From: Desulfovibrio sp.
GTDB lineage: Bacteria; Desulfobacterota; Desulfovibrionia; Desulfovibrionales; Desulfovibrionaceae
Assembly (NCBI GenBank): GCA_031287575.1
Contig: JAITSV010000051.1
Coordinates: forward strand, 9,897 to 33,896
Direction: 5' to 3'
DNA: 24,000 bases
The position numbers were made by a program, and so were the translations under genes. The notes under the pieces were generated by a model. It was not told the DNA's origin. It worked only from the letters and a program-made list of their open reading frames with translations, and made no database searches. Shown piece after piece: positions 5,291 through 16,743 of this stretch (its first letter is position 1; each line of letters starts with the position of its first letter).

Positions 5291-6698
5291 GCGAGGCGGC
5301 TCCTTGTGACGCGGCCTGGCGGCCATTGCGCCGGATCATGCTGAACCGGCTCCAGTCATGCGTGTGGAACAGCCACAACATGACCAGAGACTGGAACACC
5401 TGGGAAACGAACATGGCAAGAAATATCCCCGCCGCATCGCGCCACACCACATGGCCCATGGCCCATGCCAGCGGCAGTCGCACGAACCACGTGGCCGAAC
5501 CGTACACCAGAAAGGAGTACAGGGTGGCGCCCGCGCCGGTCATGACCCCGCCAAGGGTCATGCTGGCCACGGTGAAGGGGATGGAAACAAGGTTGTAGCG
5601 CAGATAGCTGACCACCTGCACGGCCACGGCGGGTTCCGGGGCCAGCCAGGCGGCGATGTCGGCCGTCCACGGCCAGAGCAGCACGGCGAACACGCTCATG
5701 GATGCGCAGCCGACGCCCAAGAGGCGCAGGCTGACCCGCACCGCCTCCGGCTTGCGGCCCGCGCCCAGCAGATGGCCCACCAGCACCGAGGCGGTCATGT
5801 TGAAGGCCAGAGCGGGCAGAAAGATGAACGACTCAACGCGCATGCCCGCCGTCATGCCCGCCAGGGCCGCCACGCTGCCCACGGGCAACGACGCGGCGAT
5901 GGAGAACAGCACCAGATAGCCGAGGTTCCACATGATTTGCAGCCCGGCGGCAGGCGCGGCCACGCGGATGAGATACGGCGCCCCGCGCCGCATCCAGCGC
6001 AAGGGGGGGAACGAGGCGCGTTGCAGCAACTCGCGGTCGCGGACCAGCATGGCCATGTTCAGCACCGCACCGATCATGATGGCGACGAAGGTGGCCCAGG
6101 CCACCCCGGCATATCCGTACGCGGGCAGGCCCCACAGCCCGAGGCCGAACCCCAGGGTACCCCCGGCGTTGACGACGCACACCACCACCATGGACAGCAG
6201 CGGCGCGATCATGCGCTTGCGGGCGCGGAACACCGCCCCGGTGATGGTGAACAGGTAGTTGGCGGGCAGGCCCAGCAGATACACCTTCCAGAAGTACGAG
6301 GCCACCGGCATGACGGGTTCCGGCACCTGCAACAGGCGCAGGAAGGGTTCTATGGTGCCCAGGCCCAGCAGCATGATGCCGACGCCCACCGTACAGCCCC
6401 CGGCCAGCACCATGCCCGCGTAGCGCCGGGCACGCGGCAGCAGCCCCGCGCCCAGTGCCTGGCTGATGGCCGCGACCCCGGCGTTGGCCCCGGCCACCGC
6501 CACCACCAGCAGAAAGAACAGGCACTGCGAGACGAGGCCGATGGCGGCCTGCACCTCCGCCTGGATGCGGCCGGCCACCCACACGTCGGTGAACCCGATG
6601 AGGAAGTGGAAAAGCATCATCAGCATCTGGGGCCATGTCAGCCGCCAGATGCCGCTGTAGGAAGCGTCGTCGCCCAGCGGGCGCGCGTGCTGCGACAT
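5277..6698 (-). CDS. MATE family efflux transporter (473 aa from ATG 6698)
   Basis: About 12 predicted hydrophobic helices. The N-terminal IWRLTWPQMLMMLFHFLIGFTDVWVAGRI is typical of NorM/DinF-type MATE proteins. The track start at 6767 is a GTG extension. Confidence 0.85.
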   Translation of the reverse strand: MSQHARPLGDDASYSGIWRLTWPQMLMMLFHFLIGFTDVWVAGRIQAEVQAAIGLVSQCLFFLLVVAVAGANAGVAAISQALGAGLLPRARRYAGMVLAGGCTVGVGIMLLGLGTIEPFLRLLQVPEPVMPVASYFWKVYLLGLPANYLFTITGAVFRARKRMIAPLLSMVVVCVVNAGGTLGFGLGLWGLPAYGYAGVAWATFVAIMIGAVLNMAMLVRDRELLQRASFPPLRWMRRGAPYLIRVAAPAAGLQIMWNLGYLVLFSIAASLPVGSVAALAGMTAGMRVESFIFLPALAFNMTASVLVGHLLGAGRKPEAVRVSLRLLGVGCASMSVFAVLLWPWTADIAAWLAPEPAVAVQVVSYLRYNLVSIPFTVASMTLGGVMTGAGATLYSFLVYGSATWFVRLPLAWAMGHVVWRDAAGIFLAMFVSQVFQSLVMLWLFHTHDWSRFSMIRRNGRQAASQGAASHDRQ

Positions 6699-6854
6699 CT
6701 CGTGCCGTCCGTTCGGTTCGGTGGTGGGCGTCGCACCCGCCCGCAGGCATGATCCGGCGCAGGGCACGGGGCGCCGCCGCCCGCATGTACGGGTGGCCGC
6801 CTCCGTGGCCAGGCGCGCAAAAACCCACGGCCATGCCGGAAAAACCGGCAGGGC

Positions 6855-6928: not shown

Positions 6929-7927
6929 TTACGGCCTGCTGTCAATGACGTCGCCCGCATGCAGGCGATGTTCGTGCCCGGCGGCATCCACCAGGCGCAG
7001 CAGGCCGTCGGGGTCCACGTCGGCCACCAGCCCTTCCACCACGCCGTGCGGCGTGCCCACCCGCAGGGGGGTGCCGACGATGGCGGAAAGTTCCTTCCAG
7101 CGGGCGATGACCGGGCCGGGATCGCCCTCGCGCAGGGCGGCGTACCAGTGCTCGGCCCGTTCCAGAAAGGCGCGCAGCACGTCCACCCGCGATACGGGGC
7201 GGCCCAGCTCCGCCGCCAGCGAGGTGGCCTTGCCGCGCAGGTCTTCGGGCAGATCCTCGACGCGGGTATTCACGTTGATGCCCGCGCCGGTGACCACGTG
7301 GGACACCGTGTCGGCCACCAGCGCCACCTCGGTCAGGTTGCCCGACACCTTGCGGCCATGCAGCAGCACGTCATTGGGCCATTTGGCGCGCGGGGCAAGG
7401 CCGGTGACCTCTGCCACCGCCTCGGCCACGGCCACGGCGGTCATCAGGGTGACCAGCGGCGCGGCCTGCGGGGCAAGGCGGGGCCGCAGCACCAGCGAAA
7501 CGTACACCCCCACCCCGGCGGGCGACGCCCACACGCGACCGGCGCGGCCGCGACCGGCGGTCTGCGCCGAAGCCGCGACCACGGCGCCCTCGTCCGCCCC
7601 GCCCAGGGCCAGCAGCGCGGCCTCGCGGTTGGTGGAGTCGGTGGTTTCGTGCAGGACAAAGCCGCCCCGCCCGAAACAGCACGTGCTCAGCCCCCGGCGG
7701 ACACCATCAACGGTCAGCACGTCGGCCTCGGCCAGCATCCGGTATCCCCGGCGGGTCATGGCCTCGATCTGGTGCCCTTCACCGCGCAACGTCCGCACGT
7801 GCTTGGCCACGGCGGCCCGGCTTACACCAAGCTGCCGCGAAAGTTCCTCTCCCGACCGCCAGTTGCCGCCCGCTTCGCGCAACATGGCGAACACACGCAC
7901 CTTCGTGGTCGTCCTGTCTGTGTCCAC
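6929..7927 (-). CDS. birA: Bifunctional biotin-[acetyl-CoA-carboxylase] ligase / biotin operon repressor (class II BirA with N-terminal HTH)
   Basis: 332 aa. N-terminal winged HTH (GEELSRQLGVSRAAVAKHVRTLRGEG). Biotin-binding loop GRGRAGRVWASPAG (GRGRxGRxW). C-terminal SH3-like tail. Confidence 0.95.
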   Translation of the reverse strand: MDTDRTTTKVRVFAMLREAGGNWRSGEELSRQLGVSRAAVAKHVRTLRGEGHQIEAMTRRGYRMLAEADVLTVDGVRRGLSTCCFGRGGFVLHETTDSTNREAALLALGGADEGAVVAASAQTAGRGRAGRVWASPAGVGVYVSLVLRPRLAPQAAPLVTLMTAVAVAEAVAEVTGLAPRAKWPNDVLLHGRKVSGNLTEVALVADTVSHVVTGAGINVNTRVEDLPEDLRGKATSLAAELGRPVSRVDVLRAFLERAEHWYAALREGDPGPVIARWKELSAIVGTPLRVGTPHGVVEGLVADVDPDGLLRLVDAAGHEHRLHAGDVIDSRP

Positions 7928-7932
7928 GGCGA

Positions 7933-7965
7933 TTGTAAACCATCAGGCAATTGCTTGGTTGACAA
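7933..7965. promoter_or_regulatory. BirA operator (bioO) in the divergent birA / bioB control region
   Basis: TTGTAAACC (7933-7941), 15 nt spacer, GGTTGACAA (7957-7965). The arms match 8 of 9 positions as an inverted repeat and fit the known BirA-box form TTGTAAACC-N14/15-GGTTTACAA. The right arm contains a perfect -35 hexamer TTGACA (7959-7964) facing bioB, but the -10 (TACTCG) is poor. The site starts 6 nt from the birA start codon. Confidence 0.85.
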
Positions 7966-8023
7966 AATGGAACACGCCCGCTACTCGCCCTGAACTGCCA
8001 TTCAACAGGAGCGATACCGGAAC

Positions 8024-9118
8024 ATGAACCCCCTGCTGGAACGTTTGCGCGCGCGCCTTTCGGACACCATTCCCCCCGGAACGGAAGCTCCGTACGCATC
8101 GCCAGGCCACGCCCGCACGGCGGAAGTCCCCCGGCCCGGCATCACCGGAGAAGAGGCGCTCGCCGTGGCGCGGCTGCCCGCGTCCGACATCCTGGACATC
8201 CTGGCCGTGGCGCAGACCGTGCGTTCGGCCCACAAGGGGCCGTCGGCGACCACCTGCGGCATCGTCAACGCAAAGTCGGGCCGGTGCGGCGAGGATTGCG
8301 CCTTCTGCGCCCAGTCGTCGCACCACGACACGGGCGCCCCGGTGCATGCGCTGCTCGGCCCCGACGCGTTGCTGCGCCATGCGGAAGAACTGGCCCGCGC
8401 GGGGGTGCGCCGCTTCGGCATCGTGACCAGCGGCAACGCCCTTTCGGAACGGGAGTTCGACGCGGTCTGCCAGGCGGCGCGCCTGTTGCGCGACCGTGTG
8501 GACATCGGCCTGTGCGCCTCCCTGGGGCAGCTCGTTTCCGGCACCGCCAAGAGCGAAAACCGGGGAGAACGAGCCCGCCGCCTGAAGGACGCAGGCATTT
8601 CCAGCTATCACCACAATCTTGAAACGGCCAGAAGTTTTTTCCCGCAGGTATGTACCACGCACCCCTACGATGACGACATCGCCACCGTGCGCGAAGCCGC
8701 GCGGGCGGGGCTGCGCACCTGTTGCGGCGGCATCCTTGGCCTTGGCGAAACGTGGGAACACCGCGTGGAACTGGCCCTGACCCTGCGTGAACTGGACGTG
8801 GACTCCATCCCGCTGAACTTCCTGCATCCCGTTCCGGGCACACGGCTGGGCCACCGCAGTCCGCTGCCGCCCATGGAGGCCCTGCGGGCCATTGCCGTGT
8901 TCCGGCTGCTGCACCCCGGGCGGGACATCCTGGTGTGCGGCGGGCGCGAGACCACCTTGGGCCAATGGCAAGCGTGGGTGTTCGCCGCCGGGGCCAACGG
9001 GCTGATGGTGGGCAACTACCTGACCACGGCGGGGCGCGCCCTTGCCGACGACATGGACATGCTGGCCACGCTGGGCGTGGGCGGAATTGCCCGCAATGGC
9101 GAGGGGGCACGGGCATGA
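8024..9118 (+). CDS. bioB: Biotin synthase (radical SAM)
   Basis: 364 aa. CGEDCAFCAQS is the CxxxCxxC radical-SAM motif. The rest is colinear with BioB. It has an N-terminal extension of about 35 aa relative to E. coli BioB. AGGAG lies at 8007-8011. Confidence 0.95.
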   Translation: MNPLLERLRARLSDTIPPGTEAPYASPGHARTAEVPRPGITGEEALAVARLPASDILDILAVAQTVRSAHKGPSATTCGIVNAKSGRCGEDCAFCAQSSHHDTGAPVHALLGPDALLRHAEELARAGVRRFGIVTSGNALSEREFDAVCQAARLLRDRVDIGLCASLGQLVSGTAKSENRGERARRLKDAGISSYHHNLETARSFFPQVCTTHPYDDDIATVREAARAGLRTCCGGILGLGETWEHRVELALTLRELDVDSIPLNFLHPVPGTRLGHRSPLPPMEALRAIAVFRLLHPGRDILVCGGRETTLGQWQAWVFAAGANGLMVGNYLTTAGRALADDMDMLATLGVGGIARNGEGARA

Positions 9119-10608
9119 GCGGACGGACGACGGATACCGGCATGCCCGGAGCACCCAGCACTCCCCCCACGGCAACGGACGCCACCCTGCGCCTGCGCGC
9201 GCTGGACAAGGCCCACGTGTGGCACCCCTTCACCCAGATGCGCGACTGGCTGGCGGCGGACCCGCTGGTCATCACCGCCGCCGAGGGCAACCGGCTCATG
9301 GACACCGACGGCGTGTCCTACCTGGACGGGGTGTCCTCGCTGTGGACCAACGTGCACGGGCATCGCCACCCCCGGTTGGACGCGGCCATCCGGGCACAAC
9401 TGGACAAGGTGGCCCATACCACCCTGCTGGGCCTGGGCAGCGAGCCATCCATAGAGCTGGCGGCGCGCCTTGCCGCCATCGCCCCGCAGGGGCTGACGCG
9501 GGTGTTCTATTCCGACAGCGGGTCGACAGCGGTGGAGGTCGCGCTGAAGATCGCCTTCCAGTTCCACCGCCAGGCCCCGGCGCATCTGGCGCATCCGGCG
9601 CATCTGGGCGGCGACGCCCGGCGCACCCGCTTTCTCAGCCTGCGCAACGCCTACCATGGCGACACCGTGGGCGCCGTGGCCCTGGGCGGCATGGCCCTGT
9701 TCCATTCCATCTACGCGCCGCTGCTGTTCGACACGGTAAAGGCGGAAAGCCCGTACTGCTACCGCTGTCCGTTCGGGCGGCAGGCCTGGACGTGCGAACG
9801 GGAATGCATCACCCACATGGAAACGCTGTTCGCCCGGCACGGCCACGAACTGTGCGCCGCCGTGGTGGAGCCGCTGGTGCAGGGCGCGGCGGGCATGCTG
9901 CTGCAGCCGCCCGGCTGGCTGCGCCGGGTGCGCGAACTGTGCGACGAGCACGGTGTGTTCCTGATTGCGGACGAGGTGGCCGTGGGCTTCGGCAAGACCG
10001 GCACCCTGTTCGCCTGCGAACAGGAAGGGGTGACGCCCGACTTCCTGTGCCTGGCCAAGGGCATTTCCGGCGGTTACCTGCCGCTGGCCGCCACCCTGAC
10101 CACCGAGCGGGTGCACGACGGCTTTCTGGCCCGCCACGAGGAATTGCGCACCTTCTTCCACGGCCACACCTACACCGGCAACCCGCTGGCCTGCGCGGCG
10201 GCCATCGCCTCGCTGGACGTGTTCGAGGAAGAACGGGTGATGGAGCGGCTGCAACCCAAGATCACCCGGCTGGCCACGCGGCTGGAAACGCTGCGCGACC
10301 TGCCCCACGTGGGGGACATCCGTCAGCGCGGAGTCATGACCGGCATCGAGATGGTGCGGGACCGCGATACGAAGGAAGGCTACGACCTGGCCCTGCGCAT
10401 GGGCCACCGGGTAACCCTGGAGGCACGGCGGCGCGGGGTGATCATCCGCCCGCTGGGCGACGTGATGGTACTCATGCCGCCCTTGTCCATCACCGACGAC
10501 GAGATCGACCTGCTGGTGGACGCCACGGGCGAAGCCATCCGCGCGGTGACCGAACGCGGGGCGACTGGCGGACTGGAAGCGCTGCCTGCCGTGCCGGGGG
10601 CGGCATGA
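9115..10608 (+). CDS. bioA: Adenosylmethionine-8-amino-7-oxononanoate aminotransferase
   Basis: 497 aa from the ATG at 9115, which forms an ATGA overlap with the bioB stop. Class III aminotransferase pattern: HVWHPFTQM, YHGDT, DEVAVGFGKTG, CLAKGISGGYLP. The track ORF from 8935 is an upstream extension. Confidence 0.93.
   Translation: MSGRTTDTGMPGAPSTPPTATDATLRLRALDKAHVWHPFTQMRDWLAADPLVITAAEGNRLMDTDGVSYLDGVSSLWTNVHGHRHPRLDAAIRAQLDKVAHTTLLGLGSEPSIELAARLAAIAPQGLTRVFYSDSGSTAVEVALKIAFQFHRQAPAHLAHPAHLGGDARRTRFLSLRNAYHGDTVGAVALGGMALFHSIYAPLLFDTVKAESPYCYRCPFGRQAWTCERECITHMETLFARHGHELCAAVVEPLVQGAAGMLLQPPGWLRRVRELCDEHGVFLIADEVAVGFGKTGTLFACEQEGVTPDFLCLAKGISGGYLPLAATLTTERVHDGFLARHEELRTFFHGHTYTGNPLACAAAIASLDVFEEERVMERLQPKITRLATRLETLRDLPHVGDIRQRGVMTGIEMVRDRDTKEGYDLALRMGHRVTLEARRRGVIIRPLGDVMVLMPPLSITDDEIDLLVDATGEAIRAVTERGATGGLEALPAVPGAA
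9581..9607 (+). repeat. In-frame 9-nt tandem repeat x3 inside bioA
   Basis: CGCATCTGG CGCATCCGG CGCATCTGG encodes AHL-AHP-AHL. It lies in an insertion relative to E. coli BioA, just before the conserved FLSLRNAYHGDT. Confidence 0.85.
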
Positions 10609-11279
10609 CCGCCACGGGTGACACGCACGTCACCGTGCGTTGCGGGGTGTTCCGGTTCGACCCGGCCCACCCGCTGTTCGCGGATCATTTCCCCGGCGCC
10701 CCCGTGGTGCCGGGGTCGTGCATCGTGCAGGCCTTTGCGGACGAAGCGTCGCGCTGGGCCCACGAGCACGCTCGGGGGGACGGAGGGACGCCGGAAGTGA
10801 TCGAATCCGGGCGGCAGGCAGGCCTGCGGGAAGCATTGCCCGCAGGGATGTCGGTAACGCCAGGGGCCGGGTCTGCCGGTGTCCCTCCGCATTCCGCCGG
10901 GGACGGGCCGGATGGCCGTCTGCCCGAAGAAGCCCCGCACGCGGCATGCGCGATGCCCGCAATACACTCTGTACGCCCGATACGCCCGATACGCCCGATA
11001 TGTAAGGCACGCGGGTTCCGTTTCCGGCGCTTCGTGTCGCCGGGGGACTATGCCTTCCGCATGGAATGCACGGATGAAGGCCTGCGCTGCTCGCTGCACG
11101 CGCTGCCCCATGGGCACGCCGCAACGGAAGGGCAAACGCCGGGTGCCCCGCATGGACCGGATGGGGCTGATGGACCGGACGGGCCGGATGGACCGCATAG
11201 ACCGGACGGGCCGGACGCGACGACCGCCCCTTCCCCCACTGCCCCCAGTCCCTTGGTCACCGGGGTGCTGGCGTGGTAG
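10605..11279 (+). CDS. FabZ/FabA-like hotdog-fold dehydratase subunit, His-bearing, with a large low-complexity insertion (224 aa)
   Basis: The ATG at 10605 forms an ATGA overlap with the bioA stop. FDPAHPLFADHFPGAPVVPGSCIVQAFAD aligns to FabZ [26 protein letters not shown]: the His is kept, but Gln replaces the dyad Glu at +14. The C-terminal ARGFRFRRFVSPGDYAFRMEC aligns to FabZ [20 protein letters not shown]. The two halves are separated by about 90 aa of Pro/Gly/Ala-rich sequence. Confidence 0.75.
   Translation: MTATGDTHVTVRCGVFRFDPAHPLFADHFPGAPVVPGSCIVQAFADEASRWAHEHARGDGGTPEVIESGRQAGLREALPAGMSVTPGAGSAGVPPHSAGDGPDGRLPEEAPHAACAMPAIHSVRPIRPIRPICKARGFRFRRFVSPGDYAFRMECTDEGLRCSLHALPHGHAATEGQTPGAPHGPDGADGPDGPDGPHRPDGPDATTAPSPTAPSPLVTGVLAW
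10972..10998 (+). repeat. In-frame 9-nt tandem repeat x3 (perfect) in the FabZ-like gene
   Basis: TACGCCCGA x3 encodes (V)RPIRPIRPI. Confidence 0.9.
11152..11214 (+). repeat. In-frame degenerate 9-nt tandem repeat x7 in the FabZ-like gene
   Basis: ATGGACCGG ATGGGGCTG ATGGACCGG ACGGGCCGG ATGGACCGC ATAGACCGG ACGGGCCGG encodes GPDGADGPDGPDGPHRPDGPD. Confidence 0.85.
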
Positions 11280-12121
11280 CCGCCGCCGGACTGTCCTCCC
11301 CCCTGCGCGGCCCCGTGCTCATCGCCGGGGGCTCGTGCGAACTGGGGCTGGCCCTCGGGGCGGCGATGGCCGCCGACGGCATGGCCGTGGCCCTTACCGT
11401 GCGCGATGCAGCGGGCGCGGCGCGCATCCGCGCGGCCCTGCCCCATGTGATGGGTACGCCCGAAGCGGCGGTGCTGCGCCTGCACGCACGCCGCCCGGAA
11501 CGGGGCACCGTCGGACAGGATTTCACCACGCCGCCTGCACTCGACGGTGCGGACGCCGAAGACGACACCCCGGAAACCCTGCCCGAACGCGCCCGTGCGG
11601 CACTGGGGGAAGCCCCCCGATTGTTCGTGGACCTGCTGCACTCGCGCTTCGAATGCCTGCTGGCCGGAGCTGACCCCGCCGACATCGACCTGTGGGCCGC
11701 GCGCGACATCGCCTTTCGCGCCCGGCTGCTGCGGGCCGTCAGCCGGTCCATGCTGGCCGCGCGCGACGGGCGGTGCGTGTTCGTCTCGTCCTCCGCCGCG
11801 GAGCGGGCCGCGCCGGGGCAAGGGTACTACGCCGCCGCCAAGCTGGCCGGGGAGGCCCTGTACCGCGCCGTGGGCGTGGAACTGGCACCGCGTGGGGTCA
11901 CCGCCTGTTCGCTGCGGCTGGGCTGGCTGGAGGCGGGCCGGGGCGCGCCGTTCCTGCAATCCCGTGCCGCGGGCGCTCCCCTGCCGCCCACCGGGCGCAC
12001 CGTGACCCTTGCCGAGGCCGTGCAGACCCTGCGTTTTCTGCTGTCCGCCCCGGCCACGGCCATCAACGCCACCACCCTGACCTGCGACGGCGGCTTCGGC
12101 GCGCTGAAACCGGCCTGCTGA
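11273..12121 (+). CDS. Short-chain dehydrogenase/reductase, FabG-like 3-oxoacyl-ACP reductase candidate (282 aa)
   Basis: The GTG start at 11273 overlaps the preceding stop (GTGGTAG). Variant Rossmann motif VLIAGGSCELG. Catalytic Ser region VFVSSSAA. YYAAAK is the YxxxK motif. C-terminal TLTCDGGF. There is an acidic insertion of about 35 aa after the second strand. Confidence 0.8.
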   Translation: MVAAAGLSSPLRGPVLIAGGSCELGLALGAAMAADGMAVALTVRDAAGAARIRAALPHVMGTPEAAVLRLHARRPERGTVGQDFTTPPALDGADAEDDTPETLPERARAALGEAPRLFVDLLHSRFECLLAGADPADIDLWAARDIAFRARLLRAVSRSMLAARDGRCVFVSSSAAERAAPGQGYYAAAKLAGEALYRAVGVELAPRGVTACSLRLGWLEAGRGAPFLQSRAAGAPLPPTGRTVTLAEAVQTLRFLLSAPATAINATTLTCDGGFGALKPAC

Positions 12122-12201
12122 GCCGCGTTCCGAGCATCCCGCCGGTTCCCGAAGCGGGACCGGCCCACCCTTTCGACCACCATCCACAGCACAACATCAC
12201 C

Positions 12202-12624
12202 ATGCCCGCACAGACCCGACACGAACCGCACGACATCGCGGTGGCCATCGCCGCGCTGGTGGCCCCCATCTTCGACGTGGACCCGGCCACCCTGTCCCCG
12301 AGCACCCGGCTTATGGCCGACCTGCCCTGCGAATCCATCGACCTGCTGGAAATCGGTGCCGGGCTGAACCGCTGCTTCGCCATTCCGGTGCGCGATGCCG
12401 CCGCCTTTCTCACCGACCTGCGCATCCACGTGCTGGAGGCGGAACGCACCGGCGAAGCGCCCGAAGCCCGGCTGGCGCGGGAATACCCACACCTGTCCGC
12501 CACGCGCGTGGCGGAAGTGCTGGCGGCAGTGCGCGTGCCCGGTGCGCCCCCGGTTCTGACCATCGGTGACGTGGTGGCCTACGTGGCATGGAGCCTCGCC
12601 CGGCACGCTGGCCAACCGGCCTGA
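12202..12624 (+). CDS. Acyl carrier protein-like phosphopantetheine-binding protein, atypically long (140 aa)
   Basis: The N-terminal roughly 75 aa have ACP layout, with LMADLPCESIDLLEIGAGL corresponding to the DLGxDSLDxVEL serine-attachment helix. They are followed by a C-terminal extension of about 60 aa with no motif I recognise. It lies in frame with the tail of track ORF 11692-12624. No obvious Shine-Dalgarno sequence. Confidence 0.7.
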   Translation: MPAQTRHEPHDIAVAIAALVAPIFDVDPATLSPSTRLMADLPCESIDLLEIGAGLNRCFAIPVRDAAAFLTDLRIHVLEAERTGEAPEARLAREYPHLSATRVAEVLAAVRVPGAPPVLTIGDVVAYVAWSLARHAGQPA

Positions 12625-12642
12625 TCGACAGGCGCCACGCCC

Positions 12643-13986
12643 ATGCAGCCCCCTTCCTGCCTGCCTCTTTCCCCCCACCGCGTGGTCATCACCGGCGCGG
12701 GCGCGGTGACCCCGCTGGGCCACACCCCGCAGGACGTGGCGCGCGCCATCCGCAAGGGGCACAGCCCGTTCCGCCATGCCCCGGCCCTGCCCGGCGCGGC
12801 CTGCGCCCCGGTGCCGGACTTCGACGCCGCAACGGCCACCGGACGCTGGCGGCACCGCCGCTATCTTTCGCGCGGGGGGCTGCTGGCCCTTGTCGCCGCC
12901 CTGACCGCCACCCGGCAGGCCGGATACGCGTGTGACAGCGAGACGACGCAGGGCAACGACGGCACGCATCCTTTGCCCTGCCTTCCGGACGACACCGCGC
13001 TGGTGGCCGCCAGCGGCCCCAACATGGACGTGACCGCCGATTTTCCGGCGGCCAGCGGGCGAATCCGGCTGCTGCACGACACCCCGCCCGGTCTGGAACA
13101 CCCCGGTCTGGACGCCCTGTGGATGCTGCGCTGGCTGCCCAACACCGCCGCTTCCGCCGTGGCCATGCGCTGTGGTGTCCGGGGTGAGGGGCTGGTGCTG
13201 GGCACGGCCTGCGCCGCCTCGTTGCAGGCCGTGGGCGAAGCCGCCCGGCGGGTGCGCTGGGGCCTTGCCCCGGCGGCTCTGGCCGTGGGCGGCGATTCGC
13301 GCCTGTCCGAGGGGGGATTGCTGGGCTACGCCCGCGCCGGGGCCATCCAGCGCGACCTGGACCCCGCCGACGCCAACGCCCCGCACCACGCCTGCCGCCC
13401 CTTCGACACCTCGCGGCGCGGCTTCGTACCCGGCGAGGGGGGCGCGGCCTTCGTGCTGGAGCCGCTGGACATGGCACTGGCGCGCGGGGCCGCGCCACTG
13501 GCCGAGGTGCTGGGCATGGGGGCCACGCTGGACGGCCACGCCCTGACCGCGCCGGAACCCGACGCCCGCCGGGCCGAGGCCGCCGTGCGCGGCGCGCTGG
13601 CCGAGGCTGGCCTGACGCCCGGCGACGTGCACTGGGTGGCGGCCCACGGCACCGGCACCGCCCTCAACGACGCGGCGGAAATCCGCCTGCTGGAACGGGT
13701 GTTCGCAGACGCTGGGCACGCCCCCGCCGTCACCGCCGTGAAGTCGTGGACCGGGCACTGCGCCTCGGCCTGCGGCGCGGTGGAACTGGCCGTGCTGCTG
13801 GCCTGCGCGGCGGACGGCTTTCTGCCGCCGGTGCGCAACCTGACCACGCCGGAAAGCGCACGGCTGGATTTTGTGCGCCCGGTGCGTCAACCGCGCCCCC
13901 TGCCCGCTTTCGGCAACGGCTCCGTCGGCCTGCTGCTCAATTTCGGCTTCGGCGGGCAGAACGCCGCACTGGTAGTGCGGTTGTGA
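12643..13986 (+). CDS. Beta-ketoacyl-ACP synthase, elongating KAS I/II (FabF/FabB-like) type
   Basis: 447 aa. HRVVITGAGAVTPLG N-terminus. Active-site Cys in GTACAASLQAVGEA. His in AAHGTGTALND. Lys/His in VKSWTGHCASACG. C-terminal NFGFGGQNAALVV. This gives a Cys-His-His triad, not the KAS III Cys-His-Asn triad. Confidence 0.9.
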   Translation: MQPPSCLPLSPHRVVITGAGAVTPLGHTPQDVARAIRKGHSPFRHAPALPGAACAPVPDFDAATATGRWRHRRYLSRGGLLALVAALTATRQAGYACDSETTQGNDGTHPLPCLPDDTALVAASGPNMDVTADFPAASGRIRLLHDTPPGLEHPGLDALWMLRWLPNTAASAVAMRCGVRGEGLVLGTACAASLQAVGEAARRVRWGLAPAALAVGGDSRLSEGGLLGYARAGAIQRDLDPADANAPHHACRPFDTSRRGFVPGEGGAAFVLEPLDMALARGAAPLAEVLGMGATLDGHALTAPEPDARRAEAAVRGALAEAGLTPGDVHWVAAHGTGTALNDAAEIRLLERVFADAGHAPAVTAVKSWTGHCASACGAVELAVLLACAADGFLPPVRNLTTPESARLDFVRPVRQPRPLPAFGNGSVGLLLNFGFGGQNAALVVRL

Positions 13987-14546
13987 CCCCTTTCCACCAC
14001 GCCCTGCCGCAGGAAACCCCCGACCGCTTCCTGCTGCTGGATCGGCTGGATGTCTGTGATCCGACCGGGGCCACGGCCCGCCGCGCCTTCGCCGCCGCGC
14101 CCCCGTGGCAGGGGCTGGAGGCCATGGCCCAACTGGCCGCGCTGCATGCCCGCTGGACAGCCGACTTCACTCTGCACGCCTTTCTGCTGACGGTGGATGA
14201 ATGCACCTGGCCGCCCCACGTACCGGCAGCCGACGTGCACCACGGCATGTCAAACAGCACACCGGGCAGCACACCGGGCAACACACCGGGCAACACACCG
14301 GGCGGCGCACTGCACGGCACCCTGTACATCCGGGCCGATCTGCTGGCCGAAAGCGACCGCGCGGCCACCTATGCGGCCACCATCACGCCCCTGACAGTCT
14401 TCTCCGACGCGGCTTCCGCGCCTGCGCCCCCGTACATGGCCGCCACCCTGACCATAGGCCGCGCGCCCTACGACACCCGCTTCAACGGCGGCACGCTCAC
14501 CGCCCGCTATCACGAGATATTTGCATGGCTGACCAGAATCGCCTGA
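13983..14546 (+). CDS. Second FabZ-like hotdog-fold protein, Glu-bearing and lacking the HFPG histidine segment (187 aa)
   Basis: The GTG at 13983 forms a GTGA overlap with the KAS stop. LPQETPDRFLLLDRLDV aligns to FabZ LPHRFPFLLVDRVLD. PPWQG-LEAMAQ aligns to FabZ PFFQG[[13 protein letters not shown]]LEAMAQ with the bracketed 13 residues absent. This is the only frame with sensible sequence across 13987-14524. Confidence 0.65.
   Translation: MTPFHHALPQETPDRFLLLDRLDVCDPTGATARRAFAAAPPWQGLEAMAQLAALHARWTADFTLHAFLLTVDECTWPPHVPAADVHHGMSNSTPGSTPGNTPGNTPGGALHGTLYIRADLLAESDRAATYAATITPLTVFSDAASAPAPPYMAATLTIGRAPYDTRFNGGTLTARYHEIFAWLTRIA
14256..14303 (+). repeat. In-frame 12-nt tandem repeat x4 in the second hotdog gene
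   Basis: AGCACACCGGGC x2 then AACACACCGGGC x2 encodes STPG STPG NTPG NTPG. Confidence 0.9.
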
Positions 14547-16003
14547 CCGATGCCCGCCTGCCCGGCACTGACTTGTCCGGCTCTGACTTGTCCGGCTCTG
14601 ACTTGTCCGGCACTGACCTGTCTGGCACTGACCTGTCTGGCGCAACGCCCGTCGCCGCCCCGCATCCTGCCTCTCCCGGCCTGCTGGCCGCGCGTCTGGC
14701 CCTGCGGGTGGAGGAACTGCACGCCGCAGGCCTTGGCCGCAACGCGCTGCCGCTGGACGGGCTGCCCACCCCAATGTCCCGCAGTGCCGCCGGGCAGCCT
14801 CCCTCCCCGGCGCTGGTGCACATGGAGGGCCGTCCGCTGCTCCATTTCGCGGGCAACGATTATCTGGGGCTTGCCTCCGATAAGGAATGGCGGGCCACGG
14901 TGGCCGCCTGCTTCGCGCACCACGCGCCCTCGGGCACGGCCTCGCGCCTGGCCGCCGGGCACACCGTCCTGGCGGCGGAAGCCGAGGCCGCCTGGGCCGA
15001 ATACTTCGGCTACGCCGAATGCCTGTTCCTGCCCAGCGGGTATCAGGCCAACCTGGCCCTGCTGTGGGGACTGCTGGGGCACGGCGATGCCGTGTTCCTG
15101 GACCGCCGGGTGCACGCCAGCATGGCCCACGCCCTGCCCCCCACCGGAGCGCGCCTGCATACGCACCGGCATGCGGACATGGACGACCTGTCGCGCCGCC
15201 TGGCCGCGTGGCGTGCCGATGGCAACGACGGTCCGCCCGCCTGCGGGACGGCCTGCGCCCCCCAGCCCGTTGTCCTGGCCGAATCGCTGTACAGCATGGA
15301 CTCCACCCTGCCGGACATGGCCCGCCTGGGCGCGGTGGCCCGTGAACACGGGGCCTTCGTCATCGTGGACGAAGCCCACGCATTCGGCGTGCTGGGCGCG
15401 GGCGGACGCGGGCGGGCGCACGGCGTGGCCGACGTGGCCGTGGGCACGCTGGGCAAGGCGCTGGGGCTGTTCGGAGCGTTCCTGCTGCTGCCGCGCGGCA
15501 CCCGGAACGCGCTGGAAAACCTGGCCTCGCCGCTGATCCACTCCACCGCCCTGCCGGAAGCGCACGCCGCCTGCTGCCTGGCCCTGCTGGACCTGCTGCC
15601 CCGGCTGGACGACCGCCGCCACCATCTTGCCGCGCTGGGCGCGGCCCTGCGCACCGGGCTGCGCGCCGAAGGGGTGCCCGTGCGCGAGGGGGCCCACGTG
15701 GTCTGCGTGGACGTGGGCGACGAGGAGCGCTGCACCCGCCTCGCGGCAAGGCTGCGCACCCCCACGGATGGCGGCCCCGGCGTGCTGGCCCTGGCCGCGC
15801 GCCACCCCACCGTGCCGCGTGGCGCCGCCACCCTGCGCCTGGGCCTTACCGCCCTGCACCGGGTGGACGACGTGGCCCGTTGCGTGGATCTGCTGGCCCG
15901 TGCGTGGAAAGAAGAGGAAGAAAAGCAGAACGCTGCACCGCAGCATGCTTTCCTCGATTCGGGGACGGATACCGCTGACGGCGCACCGGGAGAACAATCA
16001 TGA
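14525..16003 (+). CDS. bioF: 8-amino-7-oxononanoate synthase with an N-terminal repeat-containing extension (492 aa)
   Basis: LLHFAGNDYLGLA, SGYQANLALLWGLL, DEAHAFGVLG and GTLGKALG (PLP lysine) are colinear with BioF. The only ATG upstream of the conserved N-terminal helix is at 14525, and it overlaps the previous gene by 22 nt. The track ORF from 14201 is an Arg-rich artefactual extension. Confidence 0.88.
   Translation: MADQNRLTDARLPGTDLSGSDLSGSDLSGTDLSGTDLSGATPVAAPHPASPGLLAARLALRVEELHAAGLGRNALPLDGLPTPMSRSAAGQPPSPALVHMEGRPLLHFAGNDYLGLASDKEWRATVAACFAHHAPSGTASRLAAGHTVLAAEAEAAWAEYFGYAECLFLPSGYQANLALLWGLLGHGDAVFLDRRVHASMAHALPPTGARLHTHRHADMDDLSRRLAAWRADGNDGPPACGTACAPQPVVLAESLYSMDSTLPDMARLGAVAREHGAFVIVDEAHAFGVLGAGGRGRAHGVADVAVGTLGKALGLFGAFLLLPRGTRNALENLASPLIHSTALPEAHAACCLALLDLLPRLDDRRHHLAALGAALRTGLRAEGVPVREGAHVVCVDVGDEERCTRLAARLRTPTDGGPGVLALAARHPTVPRGAATLRLGLTALHRVDDVARCVDLLARAWKEEEEKQNAAPQHAFLDSGTDTADGAPGEQS
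14567..14641 (+). repeat. In-frame 15-nt tandem repeat x5 at the bioF 5-prime end
   Basis: ACTGACTTGTCCGGC, TCTGACTTGTCCGGC x2, ACTGACCTGTCTGGC x2 encodes TDLSG SDLSG SDLSG TDLSG TDLSG. Confidence 0.92.
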
Positions 16004-16743
16004 ACGCAATGAACCAGCCCCCCTCCCGCGCCCTGTTCGTGGTGGGCACGGACACGGGCGTGGGCAAGACGGTGGTTTCCATGCTGCTGCTGCGCGAGCT
16101 GTTCGCGCGGGGGGAGCGGCCCTTCTACGCCAAGCCCATGCAGACCGGGTGCAAAAACCCGTACGACACGGACAGCGACGCGGCCTTCGTGTACCGGCAC
16201 GTTCCGGAACTGGCCGGGCGCGACCCGGCGGAGGCGGTGGGGTGGTGCTTCGCGGCGCCTAAGGCTCCGCTCCACGCCGCGCGGGACGAAATGCGCGGCG
16301 TGGAGACGGAAGACCTGGTGCGCAGTCTGGCATGTCTGCGCGGTGAACACGCCTCTCTGGTCCTTGAAGGAGCGGGCGGTCTGATGGTGCCGTTCACGTC
16401 AAAGGCCCTGTGCATCGACTGCATCCGGGCCGCCGACGCCCGTCCCGTGCTGGTGGCGCGGGCGGGACTGGGCACCGTGAACCACACGCTCCTCTCGGTG
16501 GAGGCGCTGGTCCGGAGAGGGATGGAACCGGCAGGGATCGTTTTCGTTCACACCAAGGAACGTTCCGCATCCCCGGACCTTGTGCGGGGCAACATGGAGG
16601 CGGTAGCCATGCTGTCCGGTTTTCCGGTGAGCGGCGTGGTGCCGCCCATCGAAAATCTGCTGCATCCGCCCGACGCCGCCTTCGCGCCCTTGCGGCGCAT
16701 GCTCGACGTGCCAGACAGGGCGGACGGGGTGGGAATCAGCTAA
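16000..16743 (+). CDS. bioD: Dethiobiotin synthetase
   Basis: 247 aa. ATGA overlap with the bioF stop. P-loop FVVGTDTGVGKTVVS. KPMQTGC and LEGAGGLMVP match BioD. Confidence 0.92.
   Translation: MNAMNQPPSRALFVVGTDTGVGKTVVSMLLLRELFARGERPFYAKPMQTGCKNPYDTDSDAAFVYRHVPELAGRDPAEAVGWCFAAPKAPLHAARDEMRGVETEDLVRSLACLRGEHASLVLEGAGGLMVPFTSKALCIDCIRAADARPVLVARAGLGTVNHTLLSVEALVRRGMEPAGIVFVHTKERSASPDLVRGNMEAVAMLSGFPVSGVVPPIENLLHPPDAAFAPLRRMLDVPDRADGVGIS

Follow-up and report, generated by a model that had tools for sequence, protein, structure and literature searches.

The origin of pimeloyl in Desulfovibrio and related anaerobes has been a question since an extended bio operon was noticed in them in 2004, and the locus described here raises a more specific one: why does this operon carry two genes for FabZ-like hotdog proteins, neither of which holds a complete catalytic dyad? 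The window analyzed, which is the whole stretch of 24,000 nucleotides from a Desulfovibrio sp. contig (JAITSV010000051.1, positions 9,897 to 33,896), is chromosomal DNA assigned to a Nitratidesulfovibrio, with a G+C content of ~70%, and has an extended Desulfovibrio-type biotin operon at its center. The two genes in question, here called HD1 and HD2, lie directly after bioA and directly after the gene of a beta-ketoacyl-acyl carrier protein synthase (KAS), respectively. Rodionov et al. described five genes resembling those of fatty acid synthesis (FAS) inside this operon, suggested that they provide a novel pathway to the pimeloyl precursor and reported no bioW (PMC545781). Random barcode transposon sequencing (RB-TnSeq) by Trotter et al. 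subsequently revealed nine cluster genes that D. vulgaris requires for biotin-free growth, among them DVU2560 and DORF42491 with "FabZ-like domains", whose mode of action was not addressed (PMC10102598). In the literature searched, nothing after that 2023 study concerns DVU2560 or this pathway, and no enzyme of the module has been characterized. We propose, with a probability of roughly 75%, that HD1 and HD2 together make up a single enzyme, an obligate FabZ-type 3-hydroxyacyl-acyl carrier protein (ACP) dehydratase heterodimer with a single His/Glu site. This proposal builds on sequence comparison and on analogy with known dehydratases.

A first-pass annotation of the window had read HD1 as keeping the histidine motif of FabZ, with a Gln at position +14 where FabZ has its catalytic Glu. 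The translation, the structure-profile alignment and the hhalign alignment all agree with this reading. His28 is encoded by codon 10686-10688 and the residue at His+14 is Gln42 (codon 10728-10730), and the region around Gln42 (PGsCivqafa) sits opposite the catalytic Glu of FabZ both when the HD1 profile is compared with solved structures and in hhalign. For the HD1 family profile, which includes the window protein and distant HD1s, the hhalign comparison with E. coli FabZ yielded a probability of 96% and an E-value of 2e-9 over 91 columns, and the Gln/His position was placed under Glu68. FabA (PF07977) is the sole model of the local Pfam collection that HD1 passes, with 24.4 bits against a cut-off of 23 and over residues 19-60 only; distant HD1s reach 26-30 bits.

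The same pattern is found throughout the family. We examined 34 HD1s drawn from biotin loci, which were collected from genome and metagenome scans and from contigs encoding HD2 relatives. The histidine of the HFPG motif is kept in every one (34/34), and the residue at His+14 is His in 14, Gln in 13, Gly in 5 and Leu, Arg, Asn or Glu in one each. No invariant acidic residue was found anywhere in the HD1s of these 34 loci. The residue directly preceding the histidine was considered as an alternative acid, but it is acidic in 82% and otherwise G, K, H, R or F, and was rejected as a conserved catalytic acid. Besides that, Cys162 (11088-11090) on a strand with the sequence LRCxL is kept in 33/34 biotin loci and has no counterpart in the catalytic description of FabZ.

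HD2 carries the other half of the dyad. As already noted in the first-pass annotation and confirmed by translation, it retains the N-terminal motif of FabZ and an exact LEAMAQ (14115-14132) with the catalytic-type glutamate, Glu46 (14118-14120), which is followed by Gln50 to form ExxxQ. An exhaustive profile search of the HD2 family provided 221 representatives at 50% clustering, and residues were counted over the 135 full-length ones, which share at most 50% identity. Glu46 and Arg57 (14151-14153) are invariant (135/135 each), Ala49 and Gln50 are each present in 134/135, His55 (14145-14147) in 127/135 and His65 (14175-14177) in 121/135. An H[FWY]P motif within the 25 residues before the Glu occurs in 0/135 representatives and is absent from the window HD2 as well, and no upstream position holds a His in more than 19/135. 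His55 and His65, which were considered as a replacement for the catalytic base, sit 9 and 19 residues beyond the Glu, toward the distal end of the helix, are not kept in all members and were rejected.

The extent of the loss in HD2 had been described as a missing segment of 13 residues, with PPWQG joined directly to LEAMAQ. A net absence of 13-14 residues holds, but the boundaries had to be redrawn. In profile alignments, PPWQG lies opposite (F)PGVLI of FabZ and LPGWFA of ApeP, a subunit of the aryl polyene (APE) dehydratase; therefore, the deletion comprises the His-bearing loop upstream of PPWQG (~NVSVNEPFFQG...) and not literally the 13-residue segment of the first description.

The AlphaFold2 model of HD2, computed from a 71-sequence alignment, has a predicted local distance difference test (pLDDT) score of 84.7 and a predicted template modeling (TM) score, pTM, of 0.78, and shows a hotdog fold with a C-terminal helix. 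In this model, strand 29-39 runs directly into the central helix 41-59 without a loop, and four strands and the helix 169-184 follow. This last helix belongs to a C-terminal motif (residues 163-184, 14469-14534) of the form YDxxF...L..(H/R)Y...F.WL, which is conserved and to which HD1, KAS or ACP might dock. A Foldseek search with the model returned FabZ, 4HBT thioesterases and, at rank 29, the B chain of the ApeI:P complex (6qsr_B), with TM scores of 0.50-0.53 for FabZ and ApeP and ~0.45 for the 4HBT thioesterases, at 10-12% identity. By hhalign, HD2 matched FabZ with a probability of 69% and E. coli ApeP with one of 45% (E 2e-4). HD2 has no Pfam dehydratase or thioesterase (4HBT) match, with PF07977 giving none for the window HD2 and 11-12 bits in homologues, and the HD2 profile retrieved nothing from the PDB sequences even at E = 10.

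Since the HD1 family is His-only and the HD2 family Glu-only, the losses of catalytic residues are reciprocal and family-wide, and they are so across both families to a degree that is more than chance. A same-chain dyad of His with Glu or Asp at His+14 is present in neither HD1 nor HD2. The active site of FabZ spans two monomers, as in the H. pylori enzyme, where His58' and Glu72 come from different chains (PMC5143422); a FabZ-like HD1:HD2 dimer would therefore hold exactly one complete site. If the published pathway proposal is accepted, one dehydratase activity suffices, and as neither protein carries a full dyad, a heterodimer is favored. In such a FabZ-like hotdog heterodimer, HD1 would contribute His28 together with the HFPGxPVVPG loop, which probably includes the oxyanion-hole glycine, and the central helix of HD2 would contribute Glu46, held in place by Gln50 of ExxxQ. 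The symmetry-related site would be dead, with the His loop deleted from HD2 and Gln (His, Gln or Gly in relatives) standing for Glu in HD1. The predicted substrates are 3-hydroxyglutaryl-ACP and 3-hydroxypimeloyl-ACP, formed in two rounds of KAS, short-chain dehydrogenase/reductase (SDR), dehydratase and enoyl-reductase steps, and the enzyme would thus serve the Desulfovibrio-type building of pimeloyl-ACP for biotin on a dedicated ACP.

The genomic distribution of the two genes is consistent with such a partnership. The expectation that bio operons of this type always carry both was borne out in all informative loci: HD2 is present in 23/23 biotin loci that reach at least 4.5 kb downstream of HD1, and its place in them is constant, directly after KAS, mostly overlapping the KAS stop, and before bioF. 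The loci include assemblies named Desulfobacterales, Desulfobacteraceae and Desulfovibrionaceae, with identity to the window proteins down to ~30%. A candidate locus without HD2 (L037, 6535-9280) was set aside as uninformative: HD1 and SDR are followed there by an opposite-strand ClC-type channel gene at which the cluster breaks, and neither ACP nor KAS is present. Either this cluster is split or its contig is chimeric. Together, the reciprocal losses, the co-occurrence in 23/23 loci and the RB-TnSeq data (PMC10102598) indirectly support the earlier proposal of a heterodimer with one live and one dead site, in which the pairing itself is what we infer from the sequences.

A dehydratase in this pathway would have to deal with substrates that end in a charged group. 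In E. coli, the omega-carboxylate is masked as a methyl ester (BioC/BioH). In H. pylori FabZ, the "backdoor" residue Phe83 gates the distal tunnel and Gly79 marks the tunnel fork, both on the monomer that provides Glu72 (PMC5143422). On their common helix, Phe83 is at Glu+11 and Gly79 at Glu+7. The invariant Arg57 occupies the first of these positions in HD2, and the second holds a small residue in 135/135 (Ala in 110, otherwise Ser, Cys, Gly or Thr). HD2 would line the tunnel of the live site, and Arg57, which stands where FabZ has its hydrophobic backdoor Phe, may join His55 and His65 in binding a free omega-carboxylate. This idea agrees with Trotter et al., who suggested that enzymes of this pathway might be less hydrophobic than those of FAS (PMC10102598). 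An asymmetric tunnel that accommodates the omega-carboxylate had been suggested in the first-pass annotation; the invariant Arg57 at the backdoor position is one tentative hint of it. Tentatively, and with clearly less confidence than in the heterodimer as such, one may go further: HD1 and HD2 could form an obligate single-site heterodimer whose HD2 tunnel became a carboxylate pocket (Arg57, His55, His65). Such a pocket would allow the pathway to elongate free omega-carboxy acyl-ACPs without the BioC/BioH methyl ester and would help to fix the C7 length, and the pair perhaps arose from FabZ independently of ApeI:ApeP.

Several observations weigh against the heterodimer and have to be set against the evidence above. 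The HD1 and HD2 genes are 2.7 kb apart, and HD2 is translationally coupled to KAS and not to HD1; apeI and apeP are likewise apart in the ape cluster of E. coli CFT073. The 150 best HD2 relatives include no HD1-HD2 fusion, and long HD2-family proteins considered as fusions (P0052, P0055, P0059, P0060, P0089 and others) have only low-complexity insertions or read-through. One homologue among the 34 HD1s (L044, 1658-1996) is the sole one with a Glu at His+14 (DHFPGNPVVPGSLIIEAF), and its contig is too short to show the presence or absence of HD2. The monomer model of HD1 is poor (pLDDT 52), as its alignment is shallow and its insertions are long. The part that Arg57 may play in binding a carboxylate is read from helical register only. 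Furthermore, HD1 is nearer to canonical FabZ than to ApeI, and a pairing with the housekeeping FabZ is conceivable. This strong likeness (hhalign 96%) would also suit an arrangement in which HD1 is the sole catalytic subunit, either as a homodimer or with the housekeeping FabZ giving the Glu, and HD2 acts as a non-catalytic specificity or scaffold protein, comparable to HadA/HadC, or serves KAS or ACP. The Asp or Glu directly before the histidine in 82% of HD1s and the translational coupling of HD2 to KAS could be understood in the same way, and PDB entry 9a6k, an "integrative model of YcsD-FabZ", represents by its title a heterodimer of a FabZ paralogue with FabZ. However, a structural role leaves the conservation of Glu46 and Gln50, the ExxxQ of FabZ, in 135 divergent HD2s unexplained, several loci have G, K, H, R or F instead of the acid before the histidine, and the strict co-occurrence and reciprocal losses point to mutual dependence. 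We therefore consider this arrangement unlikely.

The best Foldseek E-values of the HD2 model (~2e-5) belong to 4-hydroxybenzoyl-CoA thioesterases that use a helix Glu, and the chemistry of HD2 is therefore not fixed by its fold alone. HD2 might accordingly be read as a hotdog thioesterase or acyl-ACP hydrolase of the Arthrobacter type with Glu46 as catalytic residue, releasing or transferring the C7 product, with HD1 acting separately. The lack of a Pfam dehydratase match would be in line with this, and a carboxylate product could find its binding residues in the invariant Arg57 with His55 and His65. Yet FabZ and ApeP give better TM scores (0.50-0.53) than thioesterases do (~0.45), the N-terminal FxLLD and LEAMAQ match FabZ and ApeP, and the pathway would be left without a complete dehydratase. 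In addition, BioF uses a pimeloyl thioester and no bioW was reported (PMC545781), so that a free acid would be a dead end. A thioesterase function of HD2 is thus improbable. Finally, large and variable low-complexity insertions in both genes of this genome, along with weak or absent matches to curated families, might indicate that the complementarity is meaningless and that one or both genes are decaying paralogues, dehydration being left to the housekeeping FabZ. Decay is very hard to reconcile with the conservation of both families, whose sequence, position and invariant core residues persist across distant taxa, and with the biotin-specific fitness phenotypes that both genes show in D. vulgaris (PMC10102598). 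Against this background, the composite-site heterodimer of HD1 and HD2 remains the reading that we prefer.

The features of the operon are listed in Table 1. The gene order is birA on the minus strand, followed on the plus strand by bioB-bioA-HD1-SDR-ACP-KAS-HD2-bioF-bioD. The flanks consist of unrelated housekeeping genes (gltX, HD-GYP, MATE pump, lysA, TrmB regulator, M20 peptidase, FKBP and GGDEF), and the nearest named homologues of the window proteins come from N. liaohensis and N. oxamicus (Nitratidesulfovibrio). The start codons of HD1 and HD2 are backed by the N-termini of homologues and by 4-base overlaps with the upstream stops, the ATG of HD1 overlapping the bioA stop and the GTG of HD2 the KAS stop. 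In-frame tandem repeats of 9, 12 or 15 bases encode low-complexity insertions in HD1 (RPI at 10972-11000, PDG at 11148-11215), in HD2 (TPGN at 14258-14303) and in the N-terminus of bioF (DLSGx at 14562-14641). The lengths of these insertions vary widely between close relatives, with HD1 proteins of 130-224 aa and HD2 proteins of 159-187 aa.

Table 1 Features of the extended biotin operon and of the two hotdog proteins, in positions of the window.
Feature	Position	Strand	Evidence and remarks
birA, biotin ligase/repressor	6929..7927	-	HTH_11, BPL_LplA_LipB, BPL_C; divergent from operon
bioB, biotin synthase	8024..9118	+	Radical_SAM and BATS
bioA, aminotransferase class III	9115..10608	+	Aminotran_3, E 7e-103
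HD1, truncated FabZ-type hotdog protein, 224 aa, core ~100 aa	10605..11279	+	Translation, Pfam FabA, hhalign
HD1 catalytic loop and start of central helix, ADHFPGAPVVPGSCIVQAFAD	10680..10742	+	Translation, profile alignments
HD1 low-complexity insertion 1, residues 58-133, including RPI repeat	10776..11003	+	Absent or much shorter in 100-160 aa homologues; pLDDT <50
HD1 low-complexity insertion 2, residues 168-214, PDG repeats	11106..11246	+	Homologue comparison, tandem repeats
SDR, FabG-like 3-oxoacyl-ACP reductase	11273..12121	+	adh_short, NCBIfam FabG, all below equivalog cut-offs; overlaps HD1 end
Dedicated acyl carrier protein, start tentative	12202..12624	+	PP-binding 17.6 bits (below cut-off), NCBIfam ACP matches
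KAS, FabF-like beta-ketoacyl-ACP synthase	12643..13986	+	ketoacyl-synt N and C; NCBIfam fabF 246 bits, below equivalog cut-off
HD2, hotdog protein without His loop, 187 aa, GTG start	13983..14546	+	Translation, AlphaFold2, Foldseek
HD2 N-terminal FabZ-like motif, LPQETPDRFLLLDR	14004..14045	+	hhalign to FabZ PHRFPFLLVDRV; FxLLD core kept family-wide
HD2 central helix and start of next strand, LEAMAQLAALHARWTADFTLH	14115..14177	+	Family conservation
HD2 low-complexity insertion, residues 77-109, TPGN repeats	14211..14309	+	Absent from 159-aa homologues; pLDDT ~60
HD2 C-terminal helix, residues 169-184, absent from FabZ	14487..14534	+	Model; Tyr163 and Tyr176 conserved
bioF, 8-amino-7-oxononanoate synthase, start tentative	14525..16003	+	Aminotran_1_2; TIGR00858 bioF 253 bits
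bioD, dethiobiotin synthase	16000..16743	+	AAA_26, E 2e-39

Between the divergent birA and bioB genes, an imperfect inverted repeat, TTGTAAACC-N14-GGTTGACAA, is found at 7935-7967. It is similar to the BirA operator predicted for Desulfovibrio by Rodionov et al. (PMC545781). The ACP is kept at the same position in all loci compared; with ~140 aa it is unusually long, and its scores stay under the ACP cut-offs of Pfam and NCBIfam. The SDR (11273-12121) is matched by the SDR models in its C-terminal half only. In many distant clusters (loci L027-L034, ~6050-6800), ACP and KAS are separated by a nitroreductase-like gene, in agreement with Trotter et al. (PMC10102598); this gene is a candidate enoyl reductase. 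No such gene lies between ACP and KAS in the window (12624-12643), the same situation as in D. vulgaris, whose required nitroreductase DVU1220 is unlinked (PMC10102598).

The operon, the need for both genes and the principle of a single-site heterodimer are all already published; the last of these is known from ApeI:ApeP, and thus the split-site principle as such is not new. What is specific to this family, as far as the sequences tell, is the invariant Arg57 at the position of the FabZ backdoor Phe. Treating the two "FabZ-like" genes as a single split enzyme would explain why both are needed and would make co-expression necessary for reconstitution. It also singles out individual residues, namely His28 of HD1 and Glu46 and Arg57 of HD2. 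The backdoor Arg offers a testable candidate answer to the question of how the charged omega-carboxylate, which E. coli masks, is handled here.

Among known systems, the FabZ homodimer (E. coli, H. pylori, P. aeruginosa) shares the hotdog fold, the HFPGxPxxPG loop seen in HD1 and the LEAMAQ helix seen in HD2. Each FabZ chain has both residues and each dimer two sites, whereas HD1 and HD2 have each lost one residue. Moreover, HD1 is without the first ~40 residues of FabZ, and HD2 is without the His loop and has the backdoor Phe changed to Arg. The double-hotdog dehydratase (DH) of polyketide synthases (PKS) and of animal FAS provides a further example of one site per pseudo-dimer, with the His on the N-terminal hotdog and the acid on the C-terminal helix (DxxxQ/H). 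The PKS/FAS DH is fused and uses Asp, in contrast to HD1 and HD2 with two genes 2.7 kb apart and Glu. Both ApeI and ApeP match the FAS DH domain 2cf2_C.

A likeness to the mycobacterial HadAB/HadBC dehydratases, which had also been drawn for the pair, applies to the architecture, i.e. a heteromeric hotdog enzyme with one catalytic site per heterodimer and a partner that shapes the substrate pocket. It does not extend to the active site. HadAB, HadBC and HadBD are hydratase-2 (MaoC) enzymes whose Asp36/His41 dyad lies wholly on HadB, with a non-catalytic partner (PMC10949391), which makes HadAB a poor analogy. In contrast to the Had enzymes, with their dyad not split, HD1 and HD2 carry FabZ-type and not hydratase-2 motifs.

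The comparison with the aryl polyene system, also suggested in the first-pass annotation, proved apt, and ApeI:ApeP is the nearest functional precedent. ApeI/ApeP is a heterodimeric dehydratase with a single active site, as reported by Lee et al. (PMC8041823), and PDB entry 6QSR is "The Dehydratase Heterocomplex ApeI:P" of Xenorhabdus doucetiae, whose chains match E. coli ApeI and ApeP. In E. coli CFT073 (c1196/c1188), ApeI has the His and an Asp at +14 (GHFAVQPLLPGVAQLD), and ApeP has lost the His and kept the Glu in LELMAQ (LPHDAPMLLLEDV...LPGWFALELMAQ); these two proteins define the Pfam families ApeI-like (PF22818) and ApeP-like (PF22817). As with HD1:HD2, two hotdog proteins are encoded in one FAS-like cluster with ketosynthase, ketoreductase and ACP; the small subunit has the His loop, the larger one combines a FabZ-like N-terminal motif with a helix Glu and is without the His, and the apeP-type gene adjoins the ketosynthase. 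In the ApeI-like proteins of APE-type loci from our scans, the residue at His+14 varies as well (D, Q, G, A, T or H). Entry 9a6k is among the matches of the HD2 model, and its title suggests that FabZ-paralogue heterodimers occur beyond the Ape system.

The sequence relationship between the two systems is distant. ApeI-like (PF22818.3) is found in precomputed Pfam matches on an identical protein (P0028) and on the HD1s of loci L028-L034; in local searches, PF22818.2 had no match in the window HD1 and reached at most 13.2 bits in homologues, against a cut-off of 28.5. Precomputed ApeP-like matches (PF22817.3) are found on just 2/27 close HD2 homologues, and the local search with PF22817 had no match in HD2 or eight homologues. 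The hhalign comparison of HD1 with E. coli ApeI gave a probability of 59% over 30 columns. In HD2, the whole loop before the helix is deleted, whereas ApeP keeps a His-less loop, and HD2 adds the Arg at Glu+11 and the C-terminal helix. The genetic context differs as well. The APE setting of a chain length factor (CLF), the aryl starter ligase ApeH, MMPL/LolA export and a polyene product is not matched by the biotin cluster, which is flanked by bioB/bioA and bioF/bioD; by BLAST, no ApeC, ApeH or ApeM homologues were found in the biotin loci. The APE product is a polyene pigment, whereas that of the biotin pair would be a saturated C7 dicarboxylate for a vitamin, formed with an enoyl-reduction step. 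Altogether, the biotin pair appears at least functionally like ApeI:ApeP and probably represents a separate or very divergent lineage. If HD1 and HD2 pair as we propose, they extend the split-site heterodimer design from aryl polyene pigments to core vitamin metabolism.

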